64,000 nt of DNA, from IMG/VR virus record IMGVR_UViG_3300044796_000401, one strand, 5' to 3'. This stretch comes from a virus (taxonomy: Duplodnaviria; Caudoviricetes). The notes beneath the pieces were generated by a model. It made no database searches. It worked only from the letters and a program-made list of their open reading frames with translations, and was not told the origin of the DNA. The translations under genes and the position numbers were made by a program. Positions 933 through 58,477 of the stretch are shown here, piece after piece; within the stretch, counting starts at the first letter, position 1, and every line of letters begins with the position of its first letter.

Positions 933-3900
933 TTATCTGTGGCGGCCGCCCCTGCGGCTCCACGGGCTCCTCGGGGCCGTGCCGCTCGAATATCCCAGAT
1001 TTGTTGTGAGTTTCTTGGTCCTTTCCATGACCTTGAGGGTCGAAAGCGGGACGCCATCGATGTTCGAGAGCGGTGCCGGGGGCCTGGATTGCTGCTGTTG
1101 CATCAGGAGACCGATGCCCTTGGGGTCCATGTGCACGTTGCCTTCCTTGACGAGCCAGTTCTGGGCGAGCAGGGCGCAAAGCATCGCGGCGTCCGCCATG
1201 TCGTCGTGGGCTCCCTTCTCCATCGGCGCTTGGACGCGAATCCTGTACTTGGACGCCACCTCCAGTTCCACCAATTTCAGTTCCTTGATGAACTTCGGCT
1301 CGTACGGGAACGAGCAGAGCTTGTTCTCGATGTAGCCCCTGAGGGCGTACGCCATCTGCGAGTTGATCGCCGGGGTGATGTTCAGCATCTCGAAGTTGAA
1401 GATGCCGTTCAGTTCGAGAAGCTGGGCAAGCTGCTGACCTCCGTGCTGGTCGGTCGCCCCGCGGAAGCAGGGCAGAATCCTGTTGATGGCCTTCATCCAG
1501 ACGAGGATGTCTTCGAGCGGCAGCACCTTGTAATTTTCGTACCTCTTCTCCCCCGGCGCTTGCGGGATGAACGGCCCCGTGAAATGCTCCCCCACCATCA
1601 TGCGGTCGATGTAGTCATAGATCAGCCTGATGCCGCCCCCGCCGCCGTATTCGAGGTGCGCGATCGCGAGCGCGCTGGCGTCGCAGATCATGCCGAGGTC
1701 GAATCCCCAGAAGTAGTTGCGCCCGAGGTGAAGCTGCGGGATGAAGCTCACGACGTTCAGCCGGGTGCTGCCCTCCGTGGGCAGCCCCGTCTCGTCCCAA
1801 TGGCAGTCCACGCAGGACTTGACCGCGGCTTCCGTGACGTACGACTCGGACGATTCGAGGAACTGCCCGCCGAACTCGGCCCTGAACGTCAGGGGATTCT
1901 TTTCATGGTCGGCCCGCAGGGTCTTGGAAAGGACCTTGTTGTTCATCTCGGCGGTCGAGCAGTTCAAGGTGAAAATCGAGGAGGCGGCACCCTTGGACAA
2001 AGCCAGCTTGTGCAATTCGTACATCTTGCCGACCCGCTTCAGGGGCGAGGAGATGCTGAAGATCATCGAGTCCTGGACGCCGAATTGCCCAGGGAGGCGG
2101 GGAGCCAGAATGTTCTTTTCGTAGACCTGCGCCGAGATGTCCTCCTCAAGAACCTCCTCTTCGTTGTCGGGATCGGCTTCCGGAGGGATGGCTTCCGTCG
2201 TGCCATCGGCATAAATGCGTTCCGTGTGGTGGAAGTCCACGGTCGATGGAGTGGCTGCGGCGTACATGTCCTCCGATGTGCTGCCTTTTTCGGCGCGGAA
2301 ATGGGCGAATTCGTCGAGGGCGAGGAACACGGACGAAGGTCCGCGGACGGCGTTCGTGGAGCAGGGCAGCGACCACACCGTGAGGGTCGGCGTTATGTCC
2401 CGCTTGTGGCGGTCGGCTTCGCAGACAAAGGTCAGTTTCTTGCTGTTGTTGTCCCGGACGAAGGGCTCGAAGAAACTGCAATGGTTCACGCGCTCGCTGA
2501 GCTTCTTGAACAGGCGGTCAGCGCCGGTGTCATCTTGAGCCAAGTAGGTGATGTCTATGGGGGAGCCGGGGACCAAGCCGAAGAATTCCTGCGGCGAGCG
2601 GATGTTCAGAAGGAGGTACAGCTTGAAACAGGTGATGGCGGCGACAAGTTCCGAATTGTGCGTGATATTGAAGTTTTTGCCAAACAAAAACAAACCGTCC
2701 GGGTCTTCGACCGTCAAACAACGCACCATTCGCCTTCCAGCGGGTTCTATAGACACAACGTACCTGTATTTTTGAGTTTTACGCACAGTCACAGAGAGCA
2801 GATTAAGCTTCCTCTGTAGACGAAAAACAGAAGATTCTCCTGTCCATGTTACCCAATATTGCACTTTGTGCTTGGGGTTACGAGGGGGCACCTCTTTCCA
2901 ATAAGGCTTAAGCCCCAAACTTGCTGCTAAATGATACACTCCCTCCGAAAGATTACGTCTCGTGTTGGTGAATGTCACTAATCCTTTTGAGCATCCCCCA
3001 TCTGTATCTAACAAACCCTGCAATAGCGCCTTTCTTTGAGAAGATGAAGCCCAAAGATAATCATTCGGAATATGTTTGTTTCCAAGAACCCCCATTTTTC
3101 GCAACACAACTTTTAACCCGCGGATAGACCAACGATGTTTTCTTTTAGACTTTTTCCAGCTAAACCCGGCACTTACAAAATATTTAAGAATTTCCAAGGC
3201 GTCAGACTCTTCCGCAGCATAATTTCCTCCAGCGCTTTCTCCATCGCCTAACCAACACCCAAAGCAATACGGGTCAAGGGGAAGGTCTTTATCCGGTAGT
3301 TCAACCGCTCTAGGCAGCGGAATCGCATGATTAGAATAATTGCCGACTTTAAGTGTCTGAAAAATTTCTTGGGTTGTTTTTACAGACCCCATCGGTTGAA
3401 GTTTAGTACATAAACCAACTATTTCAGGGCGTGGCGCATACTCATAACCAGCAGCAACCGCCCTTACCCTGCGTTGTTCTCTGCGTGCTTTACGGTGTTC
3501 TGGTGTGCGATAACACGAGGCCATACGGTCAGCCCTAGTAAACGTCAGCCAGCGATGCTCTGGATGGGCCAACACGGATGTGCCGTCGTCGAATGTGACA
3601 CAATATACTTCTGAAACAAACGGCTCGTGGGCGTAAACAACCTTGGTAGGCTTACCGCTGGGAGATAAAACCATGTCCCCGTCCTTGATGTCACCGTTCC
3701 GAACAAACCCATTGGGGGTGGGGATAGGCTCATCCAAAGCGAGGGCCTTCCCCCCACGGCGGCCAGCAAAGACGACCGCTTCGTTGTACCCGCCGTAAGT
3801 CTTGCCGAGGTTCGGGATGTCCCGCCAATCGTCGATGTTGCAGCGGTTTTCGTTGAACGCTATGTGGAGGTACTCTTCCTCCGACACCGTGCGGATGAGC

Positions 3901-4175
3901 TTCTCGCGGAACACGTCCCACATCTGCACCTGGCCCCAGAGCGGGATGCGGTCGGCCCACTCCGGACGCCAATCCAGCGGCACGCCGAAGATGCACTTGG
4001 CGATGACGCGCTGCACGGGGCGCAGGACTATGCCGGTGCCCTGCGGGCCTTCGATGAACTCGACCGCGTTCATCAACTTGCGGTTGATGTCCGTTAGCCC
4101 GGCGCTGATCGCCTTGCCGAAGGCGGAATTCCTCTGCGCTTCCTTGTTGAATATCGAGACCCTGCGTGGCGGCAT
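933..4175 (-). CDS. terL: terminase large subunit, intein-containing
   Basis: Walker A region FAGRRGGK|S, Walker B FLALDEFAHF, coupling motif ISSP, and RNase H-like nuclease motifs WGFDLG and GAHDDMADA. Confidence 0.92.
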   Translation of the reverse strand: MPPRRVSIFNKEAQRNSAFGKAISAGLTDINRKLMNAVEFIEGPQGTGIVLRPVQRVIAKCIFGVPLDWRPEWADRIPLWGQVQMWDVFREKLIRTVSEEEYLHIAFNENRCNIDDWRDIPNLGKTYGGYNEAVVFAGRRGGKALALDEPIPTPNGFVRNGDIKDGDMVLSPSGKPTKVVYAHEPFVSEVYCVTFDDGTSVLAHPEHRWLTFTRADRMASCYRTPEHRKARREQRRVRAVAAGYEYAPRPEIVGLCTKLQPMGSVKTTQEIFQTLKVGNYSNHAIPLPRAVELPDKDLPLDPYCFGCWLGDGESAGGNYAAEESDALEILKYFVSAGFSWKKSKRKHRWSIRGLKVVLRKMGVLGNKHIPNDYLWASSSQRKALLQGLLDTDGGCSKGLVTFTNTRRNLSEGVYHLAASLGLKPYWKEVPPRNPKHKVQYWVTWTGESSVFRLQRKLNLLSVTVRKTQKYRYVVSIEPAGRRMVRCLTVEDPDGLFLFGKNFNITHNSELVAAITCFKLYLLLNIRSPQEFFGLVPGSPIDITYLAQDDTGADRLFKKLSERVNHCSFFEPFVRDNNSKKLTFVCEADRHKRDITPTLTVWSLPCSTNAVRGPSSVFLALDEFAHFRAEKGSTSEDMYAAATPSTVDFHHTERIYADGTTEAIPPEADPDNEEEVLEEDISAQVYEKNILAPRLPGQFGVQDSMIFSISSPLKRVGKMYELHKLALSKGAASSIFTLNCSTAEMNNKVLSKTLRADHEKNPLTFRAEFGGQFLESSESYVTEAAVKSCVDCHWDETGLPTEGSTRLNVVSFIPQLHLGRNYFWGFDLGMICDASALAIAHLEYGGGGGIRLIYDYIDRMMVGEHFTGPFIPQAPGEKRYENYKVLPLEDILVWMKAINRILPCFRGATDQHGGQQLAQLLELNGIFNFEMLNITPAINSQMAYALRGYIENKLCSFPYEPKFIKELKLVELEVASKYRIRVQAPMEKGAHDDMADAAMLCALLAQNWLVKEGNVHMDPKGIGLLMQQQQSRPPAPLSNIDGVPLSTLKVMERTKKLTTNLGYSSGTAPRSPWSRRGGRHR
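2655..3746 (-). mobile_element. intein (364 aa) with LAGLIDADG endonuclease, class 3 signature
   Basis: Begins ALALDEPIPTPNG right after GRRGGK and ends NITHN|S. LAGLIDADG-like motifs GCWLGDG and LQGLLDTDG. AT-richer than the flanking exteins. Confidence 0.93.
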
Positions 4176-10043: not shown

Positions 10044-13000
10044 TTATTTATCCTCGCCCGCCTCGGGTTCTTCCGCCATGACTACATCAGCCAAGTCCCC
10101 GGCCCCGAGGTCGATGGGGATTTCCTCCGGCAGATTGTCGCCCGCCGCCGCTTCCTTGCCTGCCGCCATCTGCCCGAAGGTCCAGACGATCTGGTTGCAT
10201 TCATGGCAGAACATCTTCTTGCCTTCCGCGACTGTGAAGGTCTCCGTGTCGGGGGAGAAGCAGCGGGGGCATTCGCCCCTCGACGCCCTTTCCCCGCCGA
10301 TTCTGGGGTTCTGCTCTTGGCTCTCGAACAGCCCCGAGGCTTCCTTGTCGCTCGCCAGGATCGCCGGAACATCCAAAGCTTCCGGCGCTCCGCCGCCCAG
10401 GTTGGACACAGGCTGTTTGCCGCTTTCCGTTTCGCCCTGTGCCACAGGGATTTCGGACGCCGAAACCTTGGCGGCTTCCGGGACCGACTTGGTCTCCCGC
10501 TTGATGCTCGGGTCAACCGTATCGGGGCTCACAGTCTCGGACTTGGCTTCCGCCACGTCTCCGGAGACAGGAGCAGCGACCTTGGCCGCCTCCGGTACCG
10601 ACTCGGTTTCCTGATGGATATCTGTGTCCACGGTGTCGGGGCTCACGGTCTCGGACTTAGCCTCGGCCACGTCGCGACTAACATCGCTGGAAGTCAGAGG
10701 CAAGCTCATCTGGTTCGGGTCGGGCTCGGATGCGGGTTCCTCTTCATCGTACAGATTTCCGCCGTACTGCATCCATACGTTCTTTCCGCTCACTAGTTCC
10801 TCAACCATATCTTCGATCTGGTAGCGTTCGTGCCAGTAGACGTTCCCGCCCGGATCGGAAATGATCTCGCCAGAGGTCAATGCACCGATATCCTCGGGGT
10901 TGACCCATTCCCAGCCGTTGCCAGTGAAGTCTTCGAGCAAATCGTGAAGCTGCGGGTTCCATTCAACAAACCCCTTGCCCACATCAGCCTTGTTCTCAGC
11001 AACTTCGTTGAGAAGCTCCGGAGTCGGCTTCAGTGTGATGCCGCCCTTTGAATAAACAGCGGTCACATAGAGACCATCGAATTTGCCTGTCGGCTCGGCC
11101 GCTGTCTTGCTGCGCAGTTCCTCGGCCGAAGTGGTTTCCGGCTTCGTGTTGCTGTTCGTGGCGTAGGGGCTCACGGATTCCGCCTTGGCTTTCGCCAAGT
11201 CCTGCTGGATGCCGTCCGCCAACTTCTGGCCCGTGGGACCGTCGCTCGGCCCTATGTTGTCGATGGGCTTCTTCGGTTTTGGCGTCGTTATGGTTCCCAA
11301 GGCGGAGGCGCTCCTCGCGTTCGGCCCGCTGGTGTCCGCCTTGACGGCGTTCTTCTTGTCTTCCGGCGCTCCGTCGCCGTCCTTCCAGTTGTACGGGTTG
11401 TCGGCGGTATCGGCTTTCTTTTGGGATACGCCCGTGCGTGATGTGAGTGTGGATTTAAAATCCGGATGATGCCGCAGATTTTCTGCTTCATAGCCTCGCG
11501 GTTTTTCATCCGATTGTGCGGCACGATAGGCTGCCTGACAGCCACGACAAGTTGCATCCCAAGCAGGATGCTTTTCGCAATGCACCTGCTTTTCAAAACC
11601 GCCAGCGCCCTTGGACTGCTGCTTGTCATATTCCTTGTGGTGCTGCACGGTCGAAGATTCCCCGGTTTCCTTGGTTGGTGCTTCGCCCTTATCGGCGTCC
11701 ACGGCGTTGTCCGCAATGTCCGCCCTCTTCGGCTTGTCGGCCTTGACCTTCTTGGCAGACGTGTGGATGTCCCCTTCAAGAGGCTCGCCACTTTTGTCCA
11801 GATCGGGCTTCTCGTAAAGCTCTTCTTCCTCGGAAGGCTCTTGGCAGTTGCAAGACTCGCCCTCTTCCACATCGCTGCCGCATATCGGGCACTCGTTGTA
11901 GCGGACCCAGCCCTTTTCCGGCACCCACGTCTTCTTCCCGTTGGGGCAGCCAAGTTCGTGGCACGGTATCCCGTTGATGCTGAGCATCTCGCACTGGTCG
12001 CACCCGAACTTCGGCGCATCGGATTCCAGTTCGTCGGCTGCTTCCTTCACGAAGTCTTCCATGCTGGACGAAACCTGCCACGGCTTGTCGGACTCCGGCT
12101 CGTCATGTTCCTGCTTCGCCTCCGGCATGGAATCTTCTTGCGCCTCGGCTTCGGGCTCGGACAATGCCTTGTCGTCTTCCGGCTCGTCGCTCTTGAACGC
12201 CTCGGGCAACTCGCCTACATCTTTCTTGTTCGGGCGGCCATCAGTGCTGCCCTCCGGCTGCGTCGCGGTCTCACCAGGAACATCAATATCGACCAATGGT
12301 GCCGGTCCCATATCCTCGGTAATTTCTTCCCAGATCGAGTCGATGTCGAGCGCGACATCCGCCTGCTTGGGGCGGAGCTTGTTCAGCTTTGCTTCGCGCT
12401 CGTCATATGCCTTTTTGGTCTTCAAGGACGCCACTTCATAGCCCTCGTCGAAATCGGCGGCGATATGCTCGGCGATGAAATCCGCCTTGATTTGCTGGGC
12501 GGCTGTCTTAAGAGTCGGGTTTGGTCCCCATTTCCCTGCATCGATCTCTGCTGCATGGTCGAGCATGGCATGGTGCGGCTGCGCATCGGGCGTCGTGGTC
12601 TTGATGAGGTAGGCGCGGACATCCTTGGGCGGGAAGCTGTGCTTGTCGTGGAATCCACCCGTGCCATATGCCGCGGAGTATCCGCTGCCAAGGGAATTTG
12701 ACGAGCTTGCTGGCATGAGTCGCCCAGCGTCCGGATGTGTGCCGGGGTAACGCTTTCCCGTGCGGCTACGATTCTTGGTAATAGCGGCTTCCTTGTCAGA
12801 AGCGAGCACTTCCGGAAGAACCTTGACAGCGGTGCTGATCGCGCTGCCGACACCTTCCGCGGCGTTTTGCAGCGGATTTTCCTCATTTTGCGAATCTCCG
12901 TTAGTGGCTTTCTTCTCCGAAACCGTTCTCGGAAGCTCCTCCCCACTGGCGAAACCGCTGGGAAGCTGACGGAATGCCTCGGGGCTGTGGTCCTTCAGCC

Positions 13001-15032
13001 ATCCAGCTAGCCAGTGGCGCATGAACGCATACAGGTAATCGCGCCCGGCGTTGCCACGGGAGCGGATTCTCTTGCGGAAGGCTGTGTTGGCGGCGTACAC
13101 CCTCTCCGCGTAGTTTGTGAGGTAGTCCACTACAGGCTCGGTGTTCTCACCAATGGAGTCTTGCAGCCCCTTGCCAACGAAGAACATTTGGACTTCGCGG
13201 ATGACGCTGTCAGCAATGACCGTGGGCAGGATCGGCGTGTCGTCCTCGATGGCGGAAGTCTTCTTGCTGCCGACCTTGGCTTCCTCTTCCTCGCGGCGGG
13301 GAACCCCGGTCTCGTCGATGGCCACGCCGATGGGCGGCTCGCCTTCCTGCTTTTCGACACGCTCCTTGACGGCCTTGACCGTGCCTTCTTGGGCTGCGGC
13401 TGCCTCGGTGCCCGGCCCGACGTTCGTAATCGGGGTCTCGTGAGCGGCGGGCTCGATGCAAGCGCATTTCTTGCCAGATGTTTTTCCTTCTTCCAGCAAG
13501 CCAGCACCATCAAAGCGGACGGTTTCACCATTGGCAAGCATTTCAATTGGGTCTTCAATCTGATAACGTTCATGCCAGTAGACGTTCCCGCTCGGGCTGA
13601 GAAGAATTGGAGCAGAAGTCAAAGCACCGACATCTTCCGGATTCTTCCATTCCCAGCCGTTGGAAAGTAGGTCTTCAAAGATGTCCATCAGAGCGTTGTC
13701 AGTCGGCTTGTCCTTGTAAGCGGGGATTTCCTTCAAGCCGAGTTCGGTCGCGGCGACATTCAAATTGCCTTGCGGATCAATCTTGAAGGAAACGTAAGCA
13801 CCCCGGTCATCGTCTTCGTGGGCGTCCTTGTGCCTCTTGGCAGCCTCGTCCAAGCACTTGTTGCAACGGTCGCCACGGGCTTCGTCACCCATGAGAGTTG
13901 CATGGCAGGTCTTGCATTTCTTATCGGCGGCTGACTTCGCTTCCCCCTCTTGCTTGTCTGTCTTCTTTTCAGAGCCGAACGGCGGGGCTTGTCTTCCACC
14001 AAATGCCTCGGCGGCTCCGGTTTTTGGAGCGTCTTCCTTGTCTTTCTTGCCGGAGGTGCTCTTGTTCTTGCAGAAATTGCAACCACAGTCGGGCTTGCGA
14101 CCCCCGACAGAGTTTTCGGATTCATGGGACTTGGCAAGCCCCTTCATCGATTCGTACGACATGGCTTCTTTGGACGCCACGCGGGGAACGTCGAATCCGC
14201 CGTCGTCGTGATGCTCTTCCCCGGCTTCCTCCGCCGTCTCGGTGCTGGGTACCAAAGCTTCGCTGAGCGCCTGATTGAGGGACTCGAACACGTCGAGTTC
14301 CTGCGGGTCCAGTACTTCCTGGGTCACGGCGTCGGCCGTGCGGTGGTTCAGGAAAATCTTCTTCTTGTTCCCGGCTTGCTTCTGGAGGTCCGGATACTGC
14401 GTGAGCAAGTTCTCGGCGAGGAACGGGAAATTCAGCTTCGGGGTGATGTCCGTAACGTCGATCTTGGTCGTGTTGGCGTTCGTCATGATGGCGTTGAATG
14501 CGCTCGACAGACGGGGATCGTAGTACGCCGCGAACACCTGATGCCGCAAGTTGTTCTTGAGTTGCGTCTCGTCCTTCGTGAACTTGAAGACAATATACTC
14601 GCGCTTGCTGAGCCAGTTGGGGGCGAACAGGACGAGGGACTCGAACTTGCCGTCTCCGACGCCGAACAAGCGCTCTTTGATTGTGTCGAAGTCAGCTTGG
14701 CTGTATTCGTCCCAATCGCTAATACCGATCCTCTTCTCGATCATGTCGCCGACTTCCTCGCCGCCGAATTCCCTTACGATGCAGCCGTAGAGCAACGCAG
14801 TCGGGAAGTCCTTGCGGTCGGAGCAGATAGACGCCGGAATGACATAGATGCGCCCGATGCAGATGTTGGCACGAAAGCCGCGATAGAACACCTCGAAGCT
14901 CTGGATGTTCCCGGACGAGCGGGCCTGTTTCTCCCCCGCTTGTACGGCCTCTGTGACTTTCGCCAGCAGGTCTTCGCTGATGATAAACGAACTGTAGCTT
15001 TTTCCAACGTTAGAATTTCCGCTTACGCCCAT
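10044..15032 (-). CDS. very large modular acidic protein (~1662 aa), probable virion-internal polyprotein
   Basis: Start re-called at MGVSGNS (15032; GGGAG SD, just after the HNH stop). Internal duplicated modules and many KxA motifs. Confidence 0.75.
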   Translation of the reverse strand: MGVSGNSNVGKSYSSFIISEDLLAKVTEAVQAGEKQARSSGNIQSFEVFYRGFRANICIGRIYVIPASICSDRKDFPTALLYGCIVREFGGEEVGDMIEKRIGISDWDEYSQADFDTIKERLFGVGDGKFESLVLFAPNWLSKREYIVFKFTKDETQLKNNLRHQVFAAYYDPRLSSAFNAIMTNANTTKIDVTDITPKLNFPFLAENLLTQYPDLQKQAGNKKKIFLNHRTADAVTQEVLDPQELDVFESLNQALSEALVPSTETAEEAGEEHHDDGGFDVPRVASKEAMSYESMKGLAKSHESENSVGGRKPDCGCNFCKNKSTSGKKDKEDAPKTGAAEAFGGRQAPPFGSEKKTDKQEGEAKSAADKKCKTCHATLMGDEARGDRCNKCLDEAAKRHKDAHEDDDRGAYVSFKIDPQGNLNVAATELGLKEIPAYKDKPTDNALMDIFEDLLSNGWEWKNPEDVGALTSAPILLSPSGNVYWHERYQIEDPIEMLANGETVRFDGAGLLEEGKTSGKKCACIEPAAHETPITNVGPGTEAAAAQEGTVKAVKERVEKQEGEPPIGVAIDETGVPRREEEEAKVGSKKTSAIEDDTPILPTVIADSVIREVQMFFVGKGLQDSIGENTEPVVDYLTNYAERVYAANTAFRKRIRSRGNAGRDYLYAFMRHWLAGWLKDHSPEAFRQLPSGFASGEELPRTVSEKKATNGDSQNEENPLQNAAEGVGSAISTAVKVLPEVLASDKEAAITKNRSRTGKRYPGTHPDAGRLMPASSSNSLGSGYSAAYGTGGFHDKHSFPPKDVRAYLIKTTTPDAQPHHAMLDHAAEIDAGKWGPNPTLKTAAQQIKADFIAEHIAADFDEGYEVASLKTKKAYDEREAKLNKLRPKQADVALDIDSIWEEITEDMGPAPLVDIDVPGETATQPEGSTDGRPNKKDVGELPEAFKSDEPEDDKALSEPEAEAQEDSMPEAKQEHDEPESDKPWQVSSSMEDFVKEAADELESDAPKFGCDQCEMLSINGIPCHELGCPNGKKTWVPEKGWVRYNECPICGSDVEEGESCNCQEPSEEEELYEKPDLDKSGEPLEGDIHTSAKKVKADKPKRADIADNAVDADKGEAPTKETGESSTVQHHKEYDKQQSKGAGGFEKQVHCEKHPAWDATCRGCQAAYRAAQSDEKPRGYEAENLRHHPDFKSTLTSRTGVSQKKADTADNPYNWKDGDGAPEDKKNAVKADTSGPNARSASALGTITTPKPKKPIDNIGPSDGPTGQKLADGIQQDLAKAKAESVSPYATNSNTKPETTSAEELRSKTAAEPTGKFDGLYVTAVYSKGGITLKPTPELLNEVAENKADVGKGFVEWNPQLHDLLEDFTGNGWEWVNPEDIGALTSGEIISDPGGNVYWHERYQIEDMVEELVSGKNVWMQYGGNLYDEEEPASEPDPNQMSLPLTSSDVSRDVAEAKSETVSPDTVDTDIHQETESVPEAAKVAAPVSGDVAEAKSETVSPDTVDPSIKRETKSVPEAAKVSASEIPVAQGETESGKQPVSNLGGGAPEALDVPAILASDKEASGLFESQEQNPRIGGERASRGECPRCFSPDTETFTVAEGKKMFCHECNQIVWTFGQMAAGKEAAAGDNLPEEIPIDLGAGDLADVVMAEEPEAGEDK
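10464..10677 (-). repeat. two tandem ~114-bp copies encoding DVAEAKSETVSPDTVD...ETxSVPEAAKV
   Basis: Direct repeat visible in both DNA and protein; end coordinates approximate. Confidence 0.85.
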
Positions 15033-18204: not shown

Positions 18205-19200
18205 TTATGCGGCAGCCGAGGCTGCTTTCTCCTTCTTTAAACATGTAACTTGTGCTCTGTTGGCGCAAGCGGAACTACAATATTTTCTTACTCCCGCGAG
18301 ACACAAATCCCTCCTGCGCAAGACAATCGAAGAACCGCACGTTAAACACACATTCGGATGGGTAAGGTATTCATTCCATTCACGATTATGACGTTCTCGA
18401 ACCGATTCGCTGCGCAAAGTACGCACAAAACGATATACGCCTTGAACGCCTTTGGTATACCCGAGTGCTTGTAACCGCCCCCAAATTGTAACCCCGTCTA
18501 GCTGTGGCATTTGTTGGAGCCATGAAGTGACAATCTCCCGAAAGGGCTCGCACTCCCTATGAATACGAGGACTCAAAAGTTGTACTTGACGCATTCTATC
18601 TGCCTGAGCTTTACGCCGTGTGGCGGTCCAATGCTCTTGCTGTTCTTTTCTAAAAATCGGATCATTCCAAGCAGCTTTAGAGATTAAACTCATACGTGTT
18701 TTTATGTCTGCCGGATATTCCCGTTGCTTGTTGTACGCAGTAAAACGCTCTCCGTGGCGCTTTTTACGTTCGTGGTTGGATTGCCATGCTGCCTTGCGCG
18801 ACGCGCTCTGTCTGTCACGGAATTCCTTTGATAACCACAACCGCTTGGAAATCCCGCTTTGTTGTTTTCGCCTTGCGGGTGAGAGTTTGATTCCAGAATT
18901 CCTGCCCGCTAGCGGCATGACGTTGTACCCATTTTTAACCGCGTCGAACGAGTTTATCGCCATCTGTTCGTGCCACAACAGGTCTTCCTTTGGGCAAAAC
19001 GCCAACATCTCAAATTCAAAGGCGGCGGGTCCGTATTTATTCCAAGCGCGTTGAAAATGGATGCTGTGGTGCCCGTTGGCCTTAAGAAGCCTTAGATGGG
19101 CAGCTTTTCGTTCTCGTACTTTGGCAGAACTCCCAATATAGGATTTCTGGGTGATTGTGTTCAGCCAGCGATAGACCCCGCAATTGAAAAAGTCTGTCAT
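18205..19200 (-). CDS. GIY-YIG homing endonuclease
   Basis: GVYRWLNTITQKSYIGSS...FQRAWNKYG...E...GYN motif set. AT-rich. Confidence 0.88.
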   Translation of the reverse strand: MTDFFNCGVYRWLNTITQKSYIGSSAKVRERKAAHLRLLKANGHHSIHFQRAWNKYGPAAFEFEMLAFCPKEDLLWHEQMAINSFDAVKNGYNVMPLAGRNSGIKLSPARRKQQSGISKRLWLSKEFRDRQSASRKAAWQSNHERKKRHGERFTAYNKQREYPADIKTRMSLISKAAWNDPIFRKEQQEHWTATRRKAQADRMRQVQLLSPRIHRECEPFREIVTSWLQQMPQLDGVTIWGRLQALGYTKGVQGVYRFVRTLRSESVRERHNREWNEYLTHPNVCLTCGSSIVLRRRDLCLAGVRKYCSSACANRAQVTCLKKEKAASAAA

Positions 19201-20577: not shown

Positions 20578-21456
20578 ATGCGATCAGGACGCACGTACGA
20601 AGTTTTTGTGGGCGGTAGGCCCGTGGGGCTCGTGGGGAGCACCATACGGACACTTGCTAAGCGAAGAGTAAATGGTTACACAAGACGCTTTGGTCAAGGC
20701 GTTGAACTTCGTCTCATCCGCGAAATCCCTCGTCCTGAGGACTATTCCGACTCGGACTACAATTTCTATCTCAAGGCTTGCGAGGCGATGGACATCGCCC
20801 GCAAGAAGACCTACATAGAGCACGGCGGACTGAACAAGATTTCCCCGTTGATTCAGGCATATGGGAAATCTATCCTTGAAGAGGAGATGGGGAAAATTGG
20901 AGGTCGTATCGGCATCCGTAAAATGCCCCGAGAAGCGATGCTCCGCGGTGCGAGTAATGCGGGTAAGATTGGCATTAAAAAGATGTCACGTGAAGCAAAA
21001 GTTCGCGGTGCACTAAACCAGCCTCGGGAAGCAAAAGTACGGGGCGGCCTTACGCAAGGTCTGAAACATAGAGAAAACGGTACGGGTATATTTAGCTTAA
21101 CGCCGGAAGAACGTAAACAGGCTAGTAGTAAGGGCGGGCGTAAAGCTGTTGAGAGCGGGCATCTGGCCAAAGTACGCACCGTAGAACATCAGCGAGAAGC
21201 GGGGCGTAAGGGCGGACGCAAGAGTGTTGAATCGGGGCATCTAGCACGTATTCGTGCGCCGCTTGATCATACTTCAGAACATCAAAGGAGAGCGGGTTGT
21301 ATTGGTGGTCGGATCGGTGGACCCGTTTCTATTCGTAAAATGCCCCGCGAAGCAAAAGTCCGTGGAGGTCAAATTAGTGGCTGTAGACGTTGGAACGTCA
21401 ATCGTGGAAAGCCCTGCACTTGCGGGCAGCATCGAAACTACTCCATCATGGTATAG
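20578..21456 (+). CDS. putative homing-endonuclease-like protein with REAKVRGG and GRKxVESGHL repeats
   Basis: Possible degenerate GIY-YIG-like N-terminus and basic Gly-rich repeats shared with 36025..36849. Confidence 0.55.
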   Translation: MRSGRTYEVFVGGRPVGLVGSTIRTLAKRRVNGYTRRFGQGVELRLIREIPRPEDYSDSDYNFYLKACEAMDIARKKTYIEHGGLNKISPLIQAYGKSILEEEMGKIGGRIGIRKMPREAMLRGASNAGKIGIKKMSREAKVRGALNQPREAKVRGGLTQGLKHRENGTGIFSLTPEERKQASSKGGRKAVESGHLAKVRTVEHQREAGRKGGRKSVESGHLARIRAPLDHTSEHQRRAGCIGGRIGGPVSIRKMPREAKVRGGQISGCRRWNVNRGKPCTCGQHRNYSIMV

Positions 21457-22061
21457 AGTTCCAACATAGTTTTTGATTGTCCGACCGGGTGTGCATTATC
21501 CCCAGTACAATCGCATATAGCTACAGCCCGCTTAAAATCGGGCACGGACCATCCGGGGATAATAAGGCAGTGCCGCCTATCGTATAACGGTTGAATCCCA
21601 GCATCGTGAAGCACGCTTCCAACCCAACGATCCTCTGCCCACTCTCCTGTAGGAATCTCAGCGTTAGCTACTATCTTCATCGCACGTTCGTCCAACCAGT
21701 ACGCAAACCCGCTACACCATGGTTTTGGGGGGGTTTGATTAACAAATCCTGTATAGGAATTGGTTGGCAAAGCAGCGAGCATGCGTTGGGGGTGTACGCA
21801 TGTATCATCGTCGAGCTTGCAGACTTTCTGGTATCCGTTCGCCAGCGCCCATTGGAGCATCAGCCGTACCTTGAGGGGAAGGCTGTGATAGTCGTCGGGA
21901 CAACCGTCAAGAAAAACCTCATCAGGAAGCGGTTCCCTTTCTTGTTTGGCGAGGAAAAAGCGGACATCCGCGCCCTTGACAAGCGGCACCCACGTCGCCC
22001 GCTGGGCGTCGGCTCGTGCCTTGAATTTTTCGCAGGTTACGATGGCTAGGAGGAGTTTCAC
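21438..22061 (-). CDS. GT31/Fringe-like glycosyltransferase
   Basis: R.TW, DDYHSLPLK, KLDDDT (DxD) and CSGFAYWL motifs. Confidence 0.75.
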   Translation of the reverse strand: MKLLLAIVTCEKFKARADAQRATWVPLVKGADVRFFLAKQEREPLPDEVFLDGCPDDYHSLPLKVRLMLQWALANGYQKVCKLDDDTCVHPQRMLAALPTNSYTGFVNQTPPKPWCSGFAYWLDERAMKIVANAEIPTGEWAEDRWVGSVLHDAGIQPLYDRRHCLIIPGWSVPDFKRAVAICDCTGDNAHPVGQSKTMLELYTMME

Positions 22062-22711
22062 GATTGTATGCCTTTTGCTTTTTCATGCATGGCGTACAAG
22101 TTTGTTTTATCCCGTAAATTTATCTGAGGAAAGCGCGCGGCATTATGACATGTGATGGTATCGTTGTTCGGTTGTGGCCCGATAAGGGTTGTGATGATGC
22201 GGTAACGAGGGTCATTGAACGGGATGATGCCCACTGGAACAAGTATCTGGCATACCCACCAGTCTTCGGTGTAACCCGCGGCAACTTTGCTTTCCTTTCC
22301 CCTCACTACCGCTTCCATGGCTCGACGACTGAGCCAATACCCCGTTCCCCCATACACGGCGTCTATACGTCCTTGGTCTAGTCCCTGTACGCAGCCTGAA
22401 TAGTCGTGTTTCTCGAACCCCGAGGCGAGAAGTCGTGGTATGCAAATATAGGTGTCTGTGTCGCCCTTAAAAGAGTGGTCGTAACCGTGTTCAAGTGTCC
22501 AAACAATCATCCCCAATGTTTTCAAAGAGAGAGAGTGCAAATCATCGGGAACATCGAGAAAAATTTCATCCGCCGCGGCTTCTCCCTTGGGGTTGCCTAA
22601 GAAGAACTTAATATCAATAGCACCGTTATTCAGACCCATCCAAGTGTCCCGAATCTGTTCATGGCATCCCCGGTCGCGGTGGCAGCTTTGAATGGCTAGG
22701 AGAATGCGCAT
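22058..22711 (-). CDS. GT31/Fringe-like glycosyltransferase
   Basis: Start re-called at MRILLAIQSC. IRDTW, DDLHSLSLK, KGDTDT, GGTGYWLS and EDWWV motifs. Confidence 0.75.
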   Translation of the reverse strand: MRILLAIQSCHRDRGCHEQIRDTWMGLNNGAIDIKFFLGNPKGEAAADEIFLDVPDDLHSLSLKTLGMIVWTLEHGYDHSFKGDTDTYICIPRLLASGFEKHDYSGCVQGLDQGRIDAVYGGTGYWLSRRAMEAVVRGKESKVAAGYTEDWWVCQILVPVGIIPFNDPRYRIITTLIGPQPNNDTITCHNAARFPQINLRDKTNLYAMHEKAKGIQS

Positions 22712-23733
22712 GCTTCCCCTGTGTCCCGGACGACATGCACCGCCTTGTCGTCCCATAGTTGCGCCATATTGTGGTCCTTTTCGCAAGTTACAGCAAACCG
22801 CTTTCCCAAATGCTTCTCGCACCAATCGCCCATCCGGCTCTTGAGTTCGTCCATCTCGGACTCGGATTGCAGCGTGCCGTCTTTGTTTCTGGGACATACG
22901 CGTGCGGTAAAGATGCGGACTTCCGTGCCTTGGGCAAGCCACGTCTTCACCCGTTCGACCATCGGTGGTATTGGCGGCCCGAGGGGACCGTTCCATTGCT
23001 TGGAAATGCTGACTGCCAGTGTTCCGTCGAAATCTACGCCAATCCAGCCAAGCCCCGGCCACCTATCTTGGGCAAGGCTGTAGTTTTGCACAGTGCCGAT
23101 GTCCATGATGAATTCAGAAATGGGATAAGCCGACATGCGGTTTATAAGCCGAGGTAAGACATCGAATCCCAAGTCTGCCGGAGTGCGTTGCGGAATGTCC
23201 CTTAGCAACTCGGGGGTGGCAACCATGATTCCCGAGAAAGCCCAGTCGCTCCTTGGCTCAGTGGGTTTTTCCACGAATTCCCGCACGACGAAATTATCGT
23301 CAAAAACTGCGATTCCGCATCGGCTGGGTTCTCCCACTTGGTAGACCCCGATTGTTGCGGTTGAATGCGTTTGGCGGTGGAAGGCGAGCATCCGGCCCAA
23401 ATTTGCCGTGGTGAGCACGTCCGCATAGAATACCCAAAAATCGTCTCCCGCTATCCATTCTCGGTTTGCGCCGATGGTTCCGGCGGAGCCCAGCAAAGTC
23501 GGTTCCTCTACAACTCGGATTTTCATGCCGTGATATTGGCTAAGCACGGGGCGGACGGCTTCCGCATGGGCGTGCAAATTAAGCAGAATCTCATTGATGC
23601 CCGCTCGGCGGCAAATGTCCAGCCAAATGTCAAGCATCGGCGTTCCCCGAATCGGAACTAGGCATTTGGGGATGTTGTCGGTAAGGGGTCTGAGCCGGGT
23701 TCCGTTACCTGCCGCTAGGAGAAACGCTTTCAT
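22696..23733 (-). CDS. hddC: heptose-1-phosphate guanylyltransferase fused to a C-terminal HAD phosphatase
   Basis: LLAAGNGTRLRPLT..PKCL nucleotidyltransferase motif, adjacent to gmhA and hddA. C-terminal WIGVDFDGTL...FTAR...WDDKA HAD motifs. Confidence 0.8.
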   Translation of the reverse strand: MKAFLLAAGNGTRLRPLTDNIPKCLVPIRGTPMLDIWLDICRRAGINEILLNLHAHAEAVRPVLSQYHGMKIRVVEEPTLLGSAGTIGANREWIAGDDFWVFYADVLTTANLGRMLAFHRQTHSTATIGVYQVGEPSRCGIAVFDDNFVVREFVEKPTEPRSDWAFSGIMVATPELLRDIPQRTPADLGFDVLPRLINRMSAYPISEFIMDIGTVQNYSLAQDRWPGLGWIGVDFDGTLAVSISKQWNGPLGPPIPPMVERVKTWLAQGTEVRIFTARVCPRNKDGTLQSESEMDELKSRMGDWCEKHLGKRFAVTCEKDHNMAQLWDDKAVHVVRDTGEACAFS

Positions 23734-24283
23734 TTATGGCGTCCTTGAGATATTGCGACAGGATGTGGTTTAGAGAAAGGTGGAAATCCTCTACGACTCC
23801 GTAGTTGCGGGAAGATATTATAAGAGCGATATCCACCATCTCTTTCAGTTTTCCGCCGCCGAACCCGATAAAGCCTATCGTATAGATGCTCCGTCCGCGT
23901 GCGTATTCCGCAGCATGCAGGATGTTCGGCGAATTCCCGGATGCGCTGATGGCGATGAGGATGTCAGCGGGCTGCCCTTGCCGTCCAAGCTGTCGTTTTA
24001 ATTGTTCGCTGAAAACCGATTCGTAATCGACATCATTTCCCCATGCGGTTATGTTCGGCACATTGGTCAGGCTTACCACCCGCATCCCGGCGACTTTCTC
24101 GAAATCAACAGCCATATGGGAGGCCGTGGCTGCGCTTCCGCCATTGCCGATGATGAAAAGTGTGCCGTCGCACTTGCGGATAGCAAGTAATCGTTCTGCC
24201 GCCCGCTGCACCTTTTCCACATCAACCTCGTTGAAGCACTCCTGAATGTTTTTGCTGTACTCGGACAGCTTAGCCGCCAACAT
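23705..24283 (-). CDS. gmhA: sedoheptulose-7-phosphate isomerase
   Basis: IGNGGSAATASH, AWGNDVDYESVFSEQL, ISASGNSPNI and EDFH (SIS domain). Start re-called at MLAAKL. Confidence 0.9.
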   Translation of the reverse strand: MLAAKLSEYSKNIQECFNEVDVEKVQRAAERLLAIRKCDGTLFIIGNGGSAATASHMAVDFEKVAGMRVVSLTNVPNITAWGNDVDYESVFSEQLKRQLGRQGQPADILIAISASGNSPNILHAAEYARGRSIYTIGFIGFGGGKLKEMVDIALIISSRNYGVVEDFHLSLNHILSQYLKDAINESVSPSGR

Positions 24284-25235
24284 ATATGATCTTGCTCCCT
24301 TCTGGCGCATGCGCAAACTCAATCTGGCGAAGGCCGTTTAAGCTGTTCCGCACAGCGTCTTGCTTGTCGGGTTCGCAGAAAAACAAGAGGAATCCTGTCC
24401 CGCCAGCACCCAAAAGCTTGCCGCCCAAGGCTCCCGCTCGCTTAGCCGCCTCATAGTAATTGTCAATAGTCGGGTTTGAGATACCGCCTGACATTTTCTT
24501 TTTGCACTGCCAGCCGCAGTCTAATACCTCTCCCAACTCGCGGATGTCCTTATCTCCCGTCAGGCCGAGCCAGAAAACATCAACAAGCTCGCGTAGCCTA
24601 TGTAGGTGGTTGTCCTCCGAGGGCTTGATTTCCCCAAGTACCAGTGACGCATCCCGCGTCCCCCCCACGTAGAACAGCATAAGATGGTTGAAAAAGCTGC
24701 GTTGTCTTCCGGGTGAGCACAGCACGGGATCAACGAATACCGACCCATCGGAGTTGAATAGGTAGCGATGCAATCCCCCAAACGCAGCGGCATACTGGTC
24801 CTGCTTTCCTATCGGTGCCTTGAGCGTGTCGATTTCAAGCTTGCAGGCCTGCTCGGCTAGCTGGTGGGCTGTCTGCACACGACCGCAGAATCCGTGAAGA
24901 GCATTGAAAAGCCCAACTGTAAAGCTGCTCGACGAACCCATTCCCGTTCCTGCCGGGATGTCGGCGATGGATGTTATTTCGATTCCCGAGTCTACGCCTA
25001 CTTCCCGCATCACTTCACGGCATCGGTCATGGTGGACATCGGAAATGTGCTCCACGATCTCTGTCTGGGAATAGCTGATGCGAATCGTGTGGTCAAACCT
25101 GTGGTTCACCGTGATATAGACGTACTTGTTGATCGCCGTGCTGATCACCGCACCCTGACTCTTTTCATAGAACAGGGGCAAATCAGTGCCCCCACCGACA
25201 AAGCTCATGCGAAGTGGTGTTCTGGAGATGATCAT
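24270..25235 (-). CDS. hddA: D-glycero-D-manno-heptose-7-phosphate kinase (GHMP family)
   Basis: MIISRTPLRMSFVGGGTD, PAGTGMGSSS, GKQDQYAAAFGG and GGKLLGAGGTGF motifs. Confidence 0.92.
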   Translation of the reverse strand: MIISRTPLRMSFVGGGTDLPLFYEKSQGAVISTAINKYVYITVNHRFDHTIRISYSQTEIVEHISDVHHDRCREVMREVGVDSGIEITSIADIPAGTGMGSSSSFTVGLFNALHGFCGRVQTAHQLAEQACKLEIDTLKAPIGKQDQYAAAFGGLHRYLFNSDGSVFVDPVLCSPGRQRSFFNHLMLFYVGGTRDASLVLGEIKPSEDNHLHRLRELVDVFWLGLTGDKDIRELGEVLDCGWQCKKKMSGGISNPTIDNYYEAAKRAGALGGKLLGAGGTGFLLFFCEPDKQDAVRNSLNGLRQIEFAHAPEGSKIIYVGG

Positions 25236-57274: not shown

Positions 57275-58477
57275 TTAGATACTGAAATTGACCGTTTTGT
57301 CGGCTTTCTTCTTGGCGTGAAACGCTTTCAAGCTCTCGGAACGCTTGAGCTTGGTCGCTTCCGACTGTGTTTTGCCTTCAAGGGACCGGGATATTTTGTC
57401 ACGGGTTGCGGCGTCCCGTTCCTTGCCGTATGTCCAATGCTGTTCCCTACGCGGGCGGGCGGCATCAAGCGCAGCCACGGCGTTGGGATTAGCGGTGTAG
57501 AATTCCTTGTGCGACTCGGACATTTTTTCCTTCGTTTCCTCGGAATGAAATTTGCCGCCCATCGGTCCCAATGTTCCATACCATGGGTTGTTTTCACCAA
57601 GGCGGGCACCAGAATCCTTTAGTTTTTGCTTGGCTTCCTCGGACCAATTCCAATGCTTGCCTTTGGCGAGACCTTGATGTACCGGATGTTCGGGGGGTTT
57701 AGGAATACCAGTCAATTTCTTGCGGATTTTGCCTTTGGTCTTCTCGTCCCGTTCCTTGCCGTGCAGCCAGTGTTCTTCGCCGCGCGGCATATAAGAATAA
57801 GCATTGTCACCTTTGGCTTTTTCTTCTTCGTGACGCTGCGTTGTTTTCTTCCTGATAGCTCTGCGTGACTCTTTGGTATGGAATTGCGCCCTACCTATCT
57901 GGTATCCCTGTTCAAGATAGGCGGGAACTTCCTTGGTTGGCACACGGTAAGACTCAGAACCCCTGAAGACCCATTGCCGGGGAGGGGCGGTCTGCGTCCA
58001 ACCCGAATCCAAATAGCGTTGAAGCTGGTTTGCGGGAATGATGGTGCGGGAACTCTTTCCTTTGTAGACGTGCAGCCATCCGTCGATGGAATCCAGCTTC
58101 GCGCACATTCTTGCAAACGCACTAGATATTTCCCGCAGCAAAGCTTCGTCATATCCGCTTTGAGCAAGCAGATTGAAACGACTGTGACTGCACATCTTGA
58201 GGAAAGACAAATAAGCGACGGGATGTTTGGGCAGCGCCCGATACAGATAGTAGTGGGCGACAAGGTGGTCGGCGGGAGACAAAGGCTTGCAATTCCATGG
58301 ATGCTTCTTTAAGGAGACGAATTCGGGAAACATGGCACGGGGCAAAATGTGATGGTGGTGGCAGCGGCCCATTGAGGGGTGTTCTCGCGGCGACAGAGCT
58401 TGTTCGATGAACGTCAAATAAACGTCCGTCCAAATCGGATCAGGGAATAGGGATAACAGTTGTTCTCGTATGTCCAT
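57275..58477 (-). CDS. HNH-type (HHILP) homing endonuclease with NUMOD3 repeats
   Basis: HHHILPRAMFPEF...N...HLVAHYYL; GENNPWYG, HSEETKEKMSESH and QSEATK. Paralog of 60612..61523. Confidence 0.75.
   Translation of the reverse strand: MDIREQLLSLFPDPIWTDVYLTFIEQALSPREHPSMGRCHHHHILPRAMFPEFVSLKKHPWNCKPLSPADHLVAHYYLYRALPKHPVAYLSFLKMCSHSRFNLLAQSGYDEALLREISSAFARMCAKLDSIDGWLHVYKGKSSRTIIPANQLQRYLDSGWTQTAPPRQWVFRGSESYRVPTKEVPAYLEQGYQIGRAQFHTKESRRAIRKKTTQRHEEEKAKGDNAYSYMPRGEEHWLHGKERDEKTKGKIRKKLTGIPKPPEHPVHQGLAKGKHWNWSEEAKQKLKDSGARLGENNPWYGTLGPMGGKFHSEETKEKMSESHKEFYTANPNAVAALDAARPRREQHWTYGKERDAATRDKISRSLEGKTQSEATKLKRSESLKAFHAKKKADKTVNFSI

Follow-up and report, generated by a model that had tools for sequence, protein, structure and literature searches.

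An HddC-type nucleotidyltransferase fused to a phage mini-HAD domain in a soil jumbo phage: a candidate replacement for GmhB in GDP-heptose synthesis

P0001, a minus-strand gene in a 64,000-nucleotide stretch of IMG/VR virus record IMGVR_UViG_3300044796_000401 (the 64-kb window throughout this text), codes for a 345-residue protein in which a nucleotidyltransferase domain of HddC type is followed by a small phosphatase domain of the HAD superfamily. Judging from sequence and gene context, we consider it somewhat likelier than an even chance (a probability of about 0.55) that the fusion is a bifunctional heptose 7-phosphatase/guanylyltransferase in which the small domain, here called the mini-HAD, replaces GmhB. 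The window is part of the genome, 240-270 kb long, of an uncultured soil jumbo phage. According to the original prediction, the fusion completes a three-gene pathway to GDP-heptose. That claim stands in part: it is supported by the coupled genes of GmhA, HddA and HddC type, by an intact HAD domain that is not GmhB, by the lack of gmhB in the window, by bacterial fusions with the same domain order, by sister fusions of GmhA to the mini-HAD and by the precedent of the phage phosphatase AfhF. It is weakened by the nearest homologue of the mini-HAD, which has no heptose genes beside it, and by the nucleotide and DNA contexts of the wider family. The parts of the fusion gene are as follows.

22696..23733, minus strand: the whole fusion gene P0001, HddC-type nucleotidyltransferase plus mini-HAD phosphatase, an open reading frame (ORF) of 345 residues.
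23050..23733, minus strand: nucleoside triphosphate (NTP) transferase domain, residues 1-228 (PF00483), with a GxGTR loop at residues 9-13, K23, and EKP at residues 155-157.
22696..23049, minus strand: predicted capless (C0) mini-HAD phosphatase domain of 117 residues, residues 229-345 and the stop codon.
23020..23034, minus strand: HAD motif I, D234-F-D236-G-T238, with the nucleophile and the general acid/base Asp; D234 is invariant.
22900..22911, minus strand: HAD motif II, F275-T276-A277-R278, with R278 invariant and T276 nearly so.
22744..22785, minus strand: HAD motifs III (K319 in CEKDH) and IV (D328-D329 in WDDK); K319, D328 and D329 are invariant.

The two-domain layout was foreseen by the original prediction, and it holds: a HAD domain does follow the nucleotidyltransferase domain, as 3,609 homologous protein clusters (exhaustive HMMER search, E<=1e-3), conserved motifs and a confidently predicted fold attest, and the motifs WIGVDFDGTL, FTAR and WDDK lie at residues 231-240, 275-278 and 327-330. 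The border near 23050 was also placed correctly. Homology to transferases does not go beyond WPGL (residue 228, base 23050); GWIGVDFDGT then opens the HAD domain, whose family consensus begins at GWIGVD; there is thus no linker between the two. At the other end, P0001 has the N-terminus MKAFLLAAGNGTR, with which stand-alone homologues also begin. The fusion is not an assembly error, since the identical 345-residue protein occurs on 18 contigs from three repositories (JGI, ENA and Logan), the longest of 269,646 bp. Moreover, no canonical in-frame start codon is found in the ten codons preceding motif I, and the mini-HAD is therefore probably made solely as part of the fusion.

All the marks of the HAD superfamily are present in the mini-HAD, namely motif I, motifs II to IV and a Rossmann-like core. 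In an alignment of 80 homologues, D234, P254, G269, R278, W304, G310, K319, D328, D329 and G339 are invariant, and D236, G237, T238 and T276 are kept in at least 90% of the sequences; motif II aligns with S-G-R of the T4 Pnkp phosphatase. Prediction of the domain with AlphaFold2 on the same alignment gave a Rossmann-like alpha/beta core with no cap (mean predicted local distance difference test score, pLDDT, 93.4), in which motif I comes after the strand E10-13. Single-sequence prediction of the full 345-residue protein was uninformative (pLDDT 44.7). A structure search with the domain model returned 119 PDB chains at Z>=5; among the 50 entries listed, almost every one is a HAD phosphatase. 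Foldseek placed GmhB, weakly, at ranks 2-5. The structural matches discussed below are these.

T4 Pnkp 3'-phosphatase: Z 9.4, root-mean-square deviation 2.7 A over 104 residues.
BT_0820: Z 8.6.
E. coli GmhB: Z 8.2, over 110 residues.
HisB-N: Z 7.3.
B. thailandensis GmhB: Z 7.3.
AfhF of phage HY126, a D-arabinose-1,5-diphosphate phosphatase (PDB 9iqw): Z 7.0.

A Pfam scan of the C-terminal 125 residues found nothing at E<=10, a phmmer search of the C-terminal HAD domain against PDB sequences gave chance matches alone, and a scan with NCBIfam did not list TIGR00213 (GmhB) and gave TIGR01662 (HAD-IIIA) 14.7 bits, where its cut-off is 44.6. Part of the domain is matched by phrog_415 (E 8e-6). The original prediction had the domain come from a HAD family other than GmhB, and so it does: it belongs to a phage family and fails the thresholds of both the GmhB and the HAD-IIIA models. 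On the predicted model, the domain is a capless HAD with its catalytic set complete; it lies outside the GmhB family, and its shape comes nearest to the Pnkp/GmhB/HisB group. Two other assignments were considered and set aside. A GmhB paralogue was rejected, there being no match to a GmhB model or to E. coli GmhB, and a phosphomutase or a capped pyrophosphatase was judged unlikely because the predicted fold is capless. The remark that the window holds no separate gmhB was equally sound: searches of the 64 kb with E. coli GmhB (tblastn and phmmer, E<1) and with a mini-HAD hidden Markov model (HMM) turned up neither a GmhB-like gene nor a second HAD. A motif-I pattern scan of the window adds little to this, having been too narrow to pick up the window's own GVDFDGTL.

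The fusion gene lies in the following surroundings.

24270..25235, minus strand: HddA-like GHMP anomeric kinase, likely starting with MIISRTP at 25235, a start set by comparison with the related locus L054 described below.
23705..24283, minus strand: GmhA-like sedoheptulose-7-phosphate isomerase (SIS), likely starting with the ATG at 24283.
22058..22708, minus strand: GT31/Fringe-like glycosyltransferase, with homology from MRILLAIQS and a start near 22708, covering the last ~216 residues of a longer ORF.
21438..22061, minus strand: second GT31-like glycosyltransferase, with a 63% identical orthologue right after a stand-alone HAD gene in L055/L056 (also below).

The kinase has both GHMP_kinases_N and GHMP_kinases_C, and its best NCBIfam match is HddA (E 2e-38), under the cut-off; the isomerase matches Pfam SIS_2 (E 4e-17) and, again under the cut-offs, the NCBIfam gmhA models (E 2e-28). 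With its 3' end, the GmhA gene overlaps the start of the fusion gene by 29 nt, and the HddA, GmhA and transferase-HAD genes are, on the annotated coordinates, co-oriented, overlapping and translationally coupled. They follow one another in that order and are succeeded by the two GT31-like glycosyltransferases; upstream lie Gmd (PF16363, E 2e-136), an fcl-like SDR and a further SDR. The mini-HAD is thus found in the neighbourhood expected of GmhB, fused to a transferase of HddC type and directly downstream of GmhA and HddA. The 334-residue ORF at 22058-23062 on the minus strand, which overlaps the HAD in another frame, owes its N-terminal extension to an artefact; the extension is not a gene, because the likeness to GT31/Fringe is confined to the last ~216 residues.

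In the pathway that we propose, GmhA would convert sedoheptulose-7-phosphate to the 7-phosphate of D-glycero-D-manno-heptose, and HddA would phosphorylate C1 to give heptose alpha-1,7-bisphosphate. The pathway requires a 7-phosphatase between HddA and HddC (PMC10680097), and here the mini-HAD would strip the 7-phosphate through an aspartyl-phosphate at D234, with D236 acting as acid/base, while T276, R278 and K319 would hold the phosphoryl group and D328/D329 the Mg2+. The N-terminal transferase would then condense heptose-1-phosphate with GTP, a choice of nucleotide suggested by the Gmd/fcl context and by the naming of homologues. The fusion itself, its intact motifs, the predicted fold, the surrounding genes and the pattern among relatives are what the sequences show; what the HAD domain acts on, which nucleotide the transferase takes and that no host phosphatase is needed are points that we infer. 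Since the HAD is predicted to be capless and is joined with no linker, we speculate that the transferase domain may supply a substrate-binding surface. The phage mini-HAD would have been recruited into the GmhB slot, a non-orthologous displacement in which the domain order of the bacterial fusions was copied.

The transferase domain belongs firmly to the Pfam family NTP_transferase (PF00483 on residues 2-222, E 3e-34, 119 bits against a cut-off of 21) and is 62-69% identical to stand-alone acidobacterial proteins of ~230 residues, although it falls short of the HddC equivalog model (53.3 bits against a cut-off of 300). Its orthologues adjoin HddA and GmhA in three bacterial loci, L134 (64% identity), L136 (46%) and L137 (28%), with both genes within 3 kb of the orthologue; so is GmhB in two of the three, canonical GmhB adjoining the orthologue in L136 and L137 (an Actinophytocola and a gammaproteobacterial metagenome-assembled genome, MAG). 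By the gene context of its bacterial orthologues, then, the transferase is HddC-like. In the closest locus, L134 from an Acidobacteriota MAG (CAWITE010000011.1, 6678-7427), a HAD-IA protein of beta-phosphoglucomutase type overlaps the 3' end of the HddC orthologue and so occupies the same position as the phage mini-HAD. The two acidobacterial MAGs with the closest transferase orthologues contain no TIGR00213 (GmhB) match, the completeness of these MAGs being unknown. With the HAD-IA protein, the lineage that is likely to include the host may thus have replaced GmhB by a non-orthologous enzyme as well.

A HAD phylogeny, one of the checks proposed with the original prediction, was run with FastTree; the tree resolves few deep nodes, and it groups the window's HAD with relatives from phage glycan clusters (Shimodaira-Hasegawa-like support 89) within a nine-member clade (support 99). 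Every member of the group with known context sits in a phage glycan cluster, and the catalytic residues are kept in five of five clade members at 26-35% divergence. Three of the relatives (P0125, P0276 and P0275, the last from L054) are fusions of GmhA to the mini-HAD, with linkers that vary from 12 to 20 residues and intact motifs, and this form is retained across ~20% divergence. In L054 (OCZT010027913.1), the GmhA-HAD gene lies at 2754-3959, and orthologues of window genes are present for HddA (81% identity), GmhA (73.5%, to the GmhA part of the fusion), fcl (75%) and Gmd (87%). The L054 GmhA-HAD protein also carries an extra Cys-rich C-terminal tail, CRACGTFLVEGTCLLC. The DNA homology between the window and L054 spans GmhA to its last codons, where L054 passes directly into the HAD; the global alignment misplaces the HAD segment because of an indel of ~680 nt, and what it shows is confined to homology that extends over GmhA as far as the junction. 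What sets the GmhA-HAD form apart from the HddC-HAD form is therefore whether the transferase module is present at this one junction.

The closest homologue of the mini-HAD (74% identity, in L055/L056) is a stand-alone gene of 128 residues. It lies at the same boundary between sugar-nucleotide genes and an orthologous GT31-like transferase. L055 and L056 (1-8668 of Ga0116127_1002716) keep Gmd, GT11, the mini-HAD and the GT31-like transferase, and in place of the heptose genes they have a TylF-like methyltransferase, an E1-like transketolase-fold pair, a DegT aminotransferase, an SDR and an RmlC-like epimerase, a set which suggests a branched or amino 6-deoxy GDP-sugar. The mini-HAD can thus be retained in a cluster that has no visible heptose genes.

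The family at large is very big, nearly all viral or metagenomic, and has no Pfam model. In isolate phages, its members are stand-alone proteins of 105-145 residues, and most members lie in DNA-replication modules. Tandem double-HAD proteins also occur (P0129 and P0136, about 235-275 residues), and in phage Tunturi_5 a giant NUDIX protein has the mini-HAD at its N-terminus. A scan of IMG/VR with P0001 gave 48 loci, all of them matching the HAD part alone, none (0/48) with heptose genes and none from the window's own phage; the same scan with P0276 gave no loci. The replication-module neighbours, together with fusions to nucleotide enzymes and nucleases, imply that the ancestral substrates were probably nucleotides or nucleic-acid ends.

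Several of these observations, and some others, weigh against a mini-HAD that replaces GmhB. The absence of any other HAD or GmhB holds for about a quarter of the phage genome, the part that the window covers, and the capsule cluster of C. jejuni, gmhA-hddA-hddC, uses a GmhB encoded elsewhere (PMC10680097). The domain fails the GmhB and HAD-IIIA thresholds; its first structural match is T4 Pnkp, with a lead (Z 9.4) within ~1 Z unit of BT_0820 and GmhB, and T4 Pnkp also gives a weak profile match (E 0.015-0.08). No heptose genes lie within 10 kb of the mini-HAD at any of 53 other phage loci (0/53); in BcepSauron, phiRSL1, Vibrio PVA7 and Rhizobium phages, family members adjoin DNA polymerase I, helicases, nucleases or ThyX, and others are fused to NUDIX plus dTMP kinase (P0359), HNH (P0128) and EndoVII (P0126). 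Among the nearest relatives, the closest is the stand-alone gene of L055/L056, where 8.7 kb of cluster contain no GmhA, HddA or HddC, a pattern that would fit a broader role in glycan clusters, possibly the clearance of a nucleotide by-product; such a role would agree with the leaning of the wider family towards nucleotides. There is no HddC on the 5-kb L054 contig, and, from the junction compared above, the GmhA-HAD and HddC-HAD forms may not represent two independent fusion events.

In a different explanation, the mini-HAD is active but on another substrate (a GDP or GMP by-product, the pyrophosphate released by the transferase, another sugar phosphate or a phosphorylated acceptor) and a host HAD enzyme removes the 7-phosphate. 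The replication and nucleotide modules of the family and its fusions to NUDIX and dTMP kinase speak for it, as do the retention of the nearest homologue in a GDP-sugar/glycosyltransferase cluster that shows no heptose genes, the structural match to T4 Pnkp and the example of C. jejuni. It does less well with the three diverged GmhA-HAD fusions in related phages, with a domain order equal to that of the bacterial transferase-GmhB fusions, with the placement of the mini-HAD at the spot taken by a HAD gene in the acidobacterial cluster and with two MAGs of the likely host lineage that have no canonical GmhB match. Moreover, the known HAD pyrophosphatases are capped HAD-IA enzymes, whereas the phage HAD is capless, and the BT pyrophosphatase 3qu2 reaches merely Z 6.5 against the model. 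We regard activity on another substrate as possible but unlikely.

The transferase could alternatively serve mainly as a mannose-1-phosphate guanylyltransferase that feeds a Gmd/fcl/GT11 fucose branch, in which case the HAD need not serve the heptose branch. Gmd and the fcl-like SDR are indeed present in the cluster, JGI names close homologues mannose-1-phosphate guanylyltransferase, and this is also the best NCBIfam match of the transferase (112 bits, against 53 for HddC, both far under the cut-offs). However, orthologues in three bacterial phyla directly adjoin HddA and GmhA, the transferase gene overlaps the 3' end of GmhA in the phage, and the window has no phosphomannomutase or other source of mannose-1-phosphate. 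One enzyme could, besides, have both activities, for a single CHOH is all that separates the substrates. A transferase devoted mainly to mannose, with a HAD unconnected to heptose, is improbable on this evidence. Still more improbable is an incidental fusion, in which, within a tightly packed operon, the stop or gap between a resident mini-HAD gene and its upstream neighbour disappeared, leaving a domain that is inactive or has no bearing on glycan synthesis: the linkerless junction, the occurrence of the HAD as a stand-alone, GmhA-fused or HddC-fused unit at the same boundary between synthesis and glycosyltransferase blocks and the fusion of other family members to unrelated HNH and EndoVII nucleases would suit it, but catalytic residues intact in all five clade members at 26-35% divergence, a GmhA-HAD form that persists through ~20% divergence while its linkers change, a protein identical on 18 contigs and the lack of a canonical start before motif I all speak against it.

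The replacement of GmhB by the mini-HAD can also be put in a bolder form. A clade of mini-HADs would have been converted from a phosphatase of nucleotides or DNA ends to a heptose-1,7-bisphosphate 7-phosphatase, set with no linker on an HddC derived from the host; the transferase would act as the missing cap, the two active sites would pass heptose-1-phosphate between them, and the phage would make GDP-heptose independently of the host for a glycan factory of 16 kb. We put this forward tentatively, as a set of proposals that is unlikely to hold in full.

Should the replacement of GmhB prove true, it would be a clear case of non-orthologous domain displacement, in that two HAD lineages unrelated to each other would have contributed to the same module of 7-phosphatase and nucleotidyltransferase: GmhB in bacteria and, in a phage, a mini-HAD of 117 residues. 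A phage family of ~3,600 clusters, for which Pfam has no model, would also acquire its first function in a sugar pathway. A soil jumbo phage would then make GDP-heptose alone, which bears on the target of glycosylation, be it the virion, the host surface or DNA, and a compact single-chain enzyme leading from heptose bisphosphate to GDP-heptose would be useful in the chemoenzymatic synthesis of heptose nucleotides.

As to the phage itself, the gene of the large terminase (933-4175, minus strand; 1,080 residues) has its best isolate match in Tunturi_5, a 309-kb phage of Tunturiibacter (Acidobacteriota), at 42% identity, and the host lineage is probably acidobacterial, with Terriglobia as the probable group. 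The Tunturi_5 terminase aligns to that of the window in two pieces that cover 66% of the query, a split which suggests an inserted element, for example an intein. A GIY-YIG-domain protein (18205-19200, minus strand) lies near the glycan cluster and a protein resembling HNH/homing endonucleases (57275-58477, minus strand) among structural genes; both are probably mobile endonuclease genes. The window has no tRNA genes.

How does the fusion compare with known systems? A literature search found no direct report of phage GDP-heptose or of an HddC-GmhB fusion. The T4 Pnkp 3'-phosphatase (PDB 5uj0, 1ltq) shares with the mini-HAD an S/T-x-R motif II, a DD motif IV and a phage origin; it differs in acting on 3'-phosphorylated ends of nucleic acids, in being fused to a P-loop kinase and in having no link to sugar metabolism. 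GmhB (HAD-IIIA; PDB 2gmw, 3l8e, 4pnh) has the same capless fold and four-motif chemistry, and the proposed substrate and pathway position are also shared. In contrast, the mini-HAD is only 13-15% identical to it and ~70 residues shorter, and is not a member of its family.

The concept of a phage mini-HAD that acts on a sugar bisphosphate is already known from AfhF of phage HY126, an Mg2+-dependent arabinose-1,5-bisphosphate phosphatase of 123 residues (PMC13326640). Phages HY126, RB69 and DLP3 make UDP-arabinose with an SIS isomerase, an anomeric kinase, the AfhF HAD and a nucleotidyltransferase (PMC13326640). Like the mini-HAD of the window, AfhF and its homologues, RB69 gp51 and DLP3 gp81, are capless phage HADs of ~125 residues, and AfhF takes off the phosphate at the non-anomeric end of a sugar 1,omega-bisphosphate, at a step that follows an anomeric kinase and precedes a nucleotidyltransferase, as proposed here. 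However, AfhF acts on a pentose, whereas the pathway proposed for the window makes a heptose, and its product goes onto DNA bases; AfhF stands alone, and it is the kinase, not the phosphatase, that is fused to the transferase in its pathway. The best PHROG match of the mini-HAD is nevertheless phrog_1238, the family of AfhF and RB69 gp51 (E 2.7e-6, over residues 10-69, the N-terminal half); RB69 gp51 itself matches it at full length (E 1.9e-42), which the mini-HAD does not, and with an hhalign probability of 22% to RB69 gp51 and an identity of 12% to AfhF, the relationship is, as far as these comparisons go, only remote. RefSeq and PHROGs label phrog_1238 'phosphoheptose isomerase' (RB69, NC_004928, 27708-28094; Vibrio PVA7, 12872-13576), a label which is a propagated error, because the members are small HAD phosphatases.

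The bifunctional architecture of heptose phosphatase and nucleotidyltransferase is likewise already common in bacterial sequence data. What is new here is a phage mini-HAD other than GmhB in the GmhB slot, with sister GmhA-HAD fusions, in a jumbo phage probably of Acidobacteriota. Bacterial fusions of an N-terminal NTP-transferase to a C-terminal GmhB (PF00483 plus HAD-IIIA, about 400-445 residues) are abundant; in JGI they go under the name 'D,D-heptose 1,7-bisphosphate phosphatase', and our literature search found no biochemical paper on them. GmhB is also recurrently fused, in bacteria, to the adenylyltransferase domain of HldE and to heptosyltransferases. The HAD of the bacterial transferase-GmhB fusions is a canonical GmhB of 150-190 residues, 42-52% identical to that of E. 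coli, whereas the phage HAD has 117 residues and no detectable sequence similarity to GmhB, in a gene that is viral. The two kinds of protein have in common a transferase at the N-terminus, a HAD at the C-terminus and, presumably, consecutive steps of a pathway, and the bacterial transferase aligns end to end with that of the phage at 24-28% identity. The abundance of the bacterial fusions argues that selection repeatedly unites both activities in that order.

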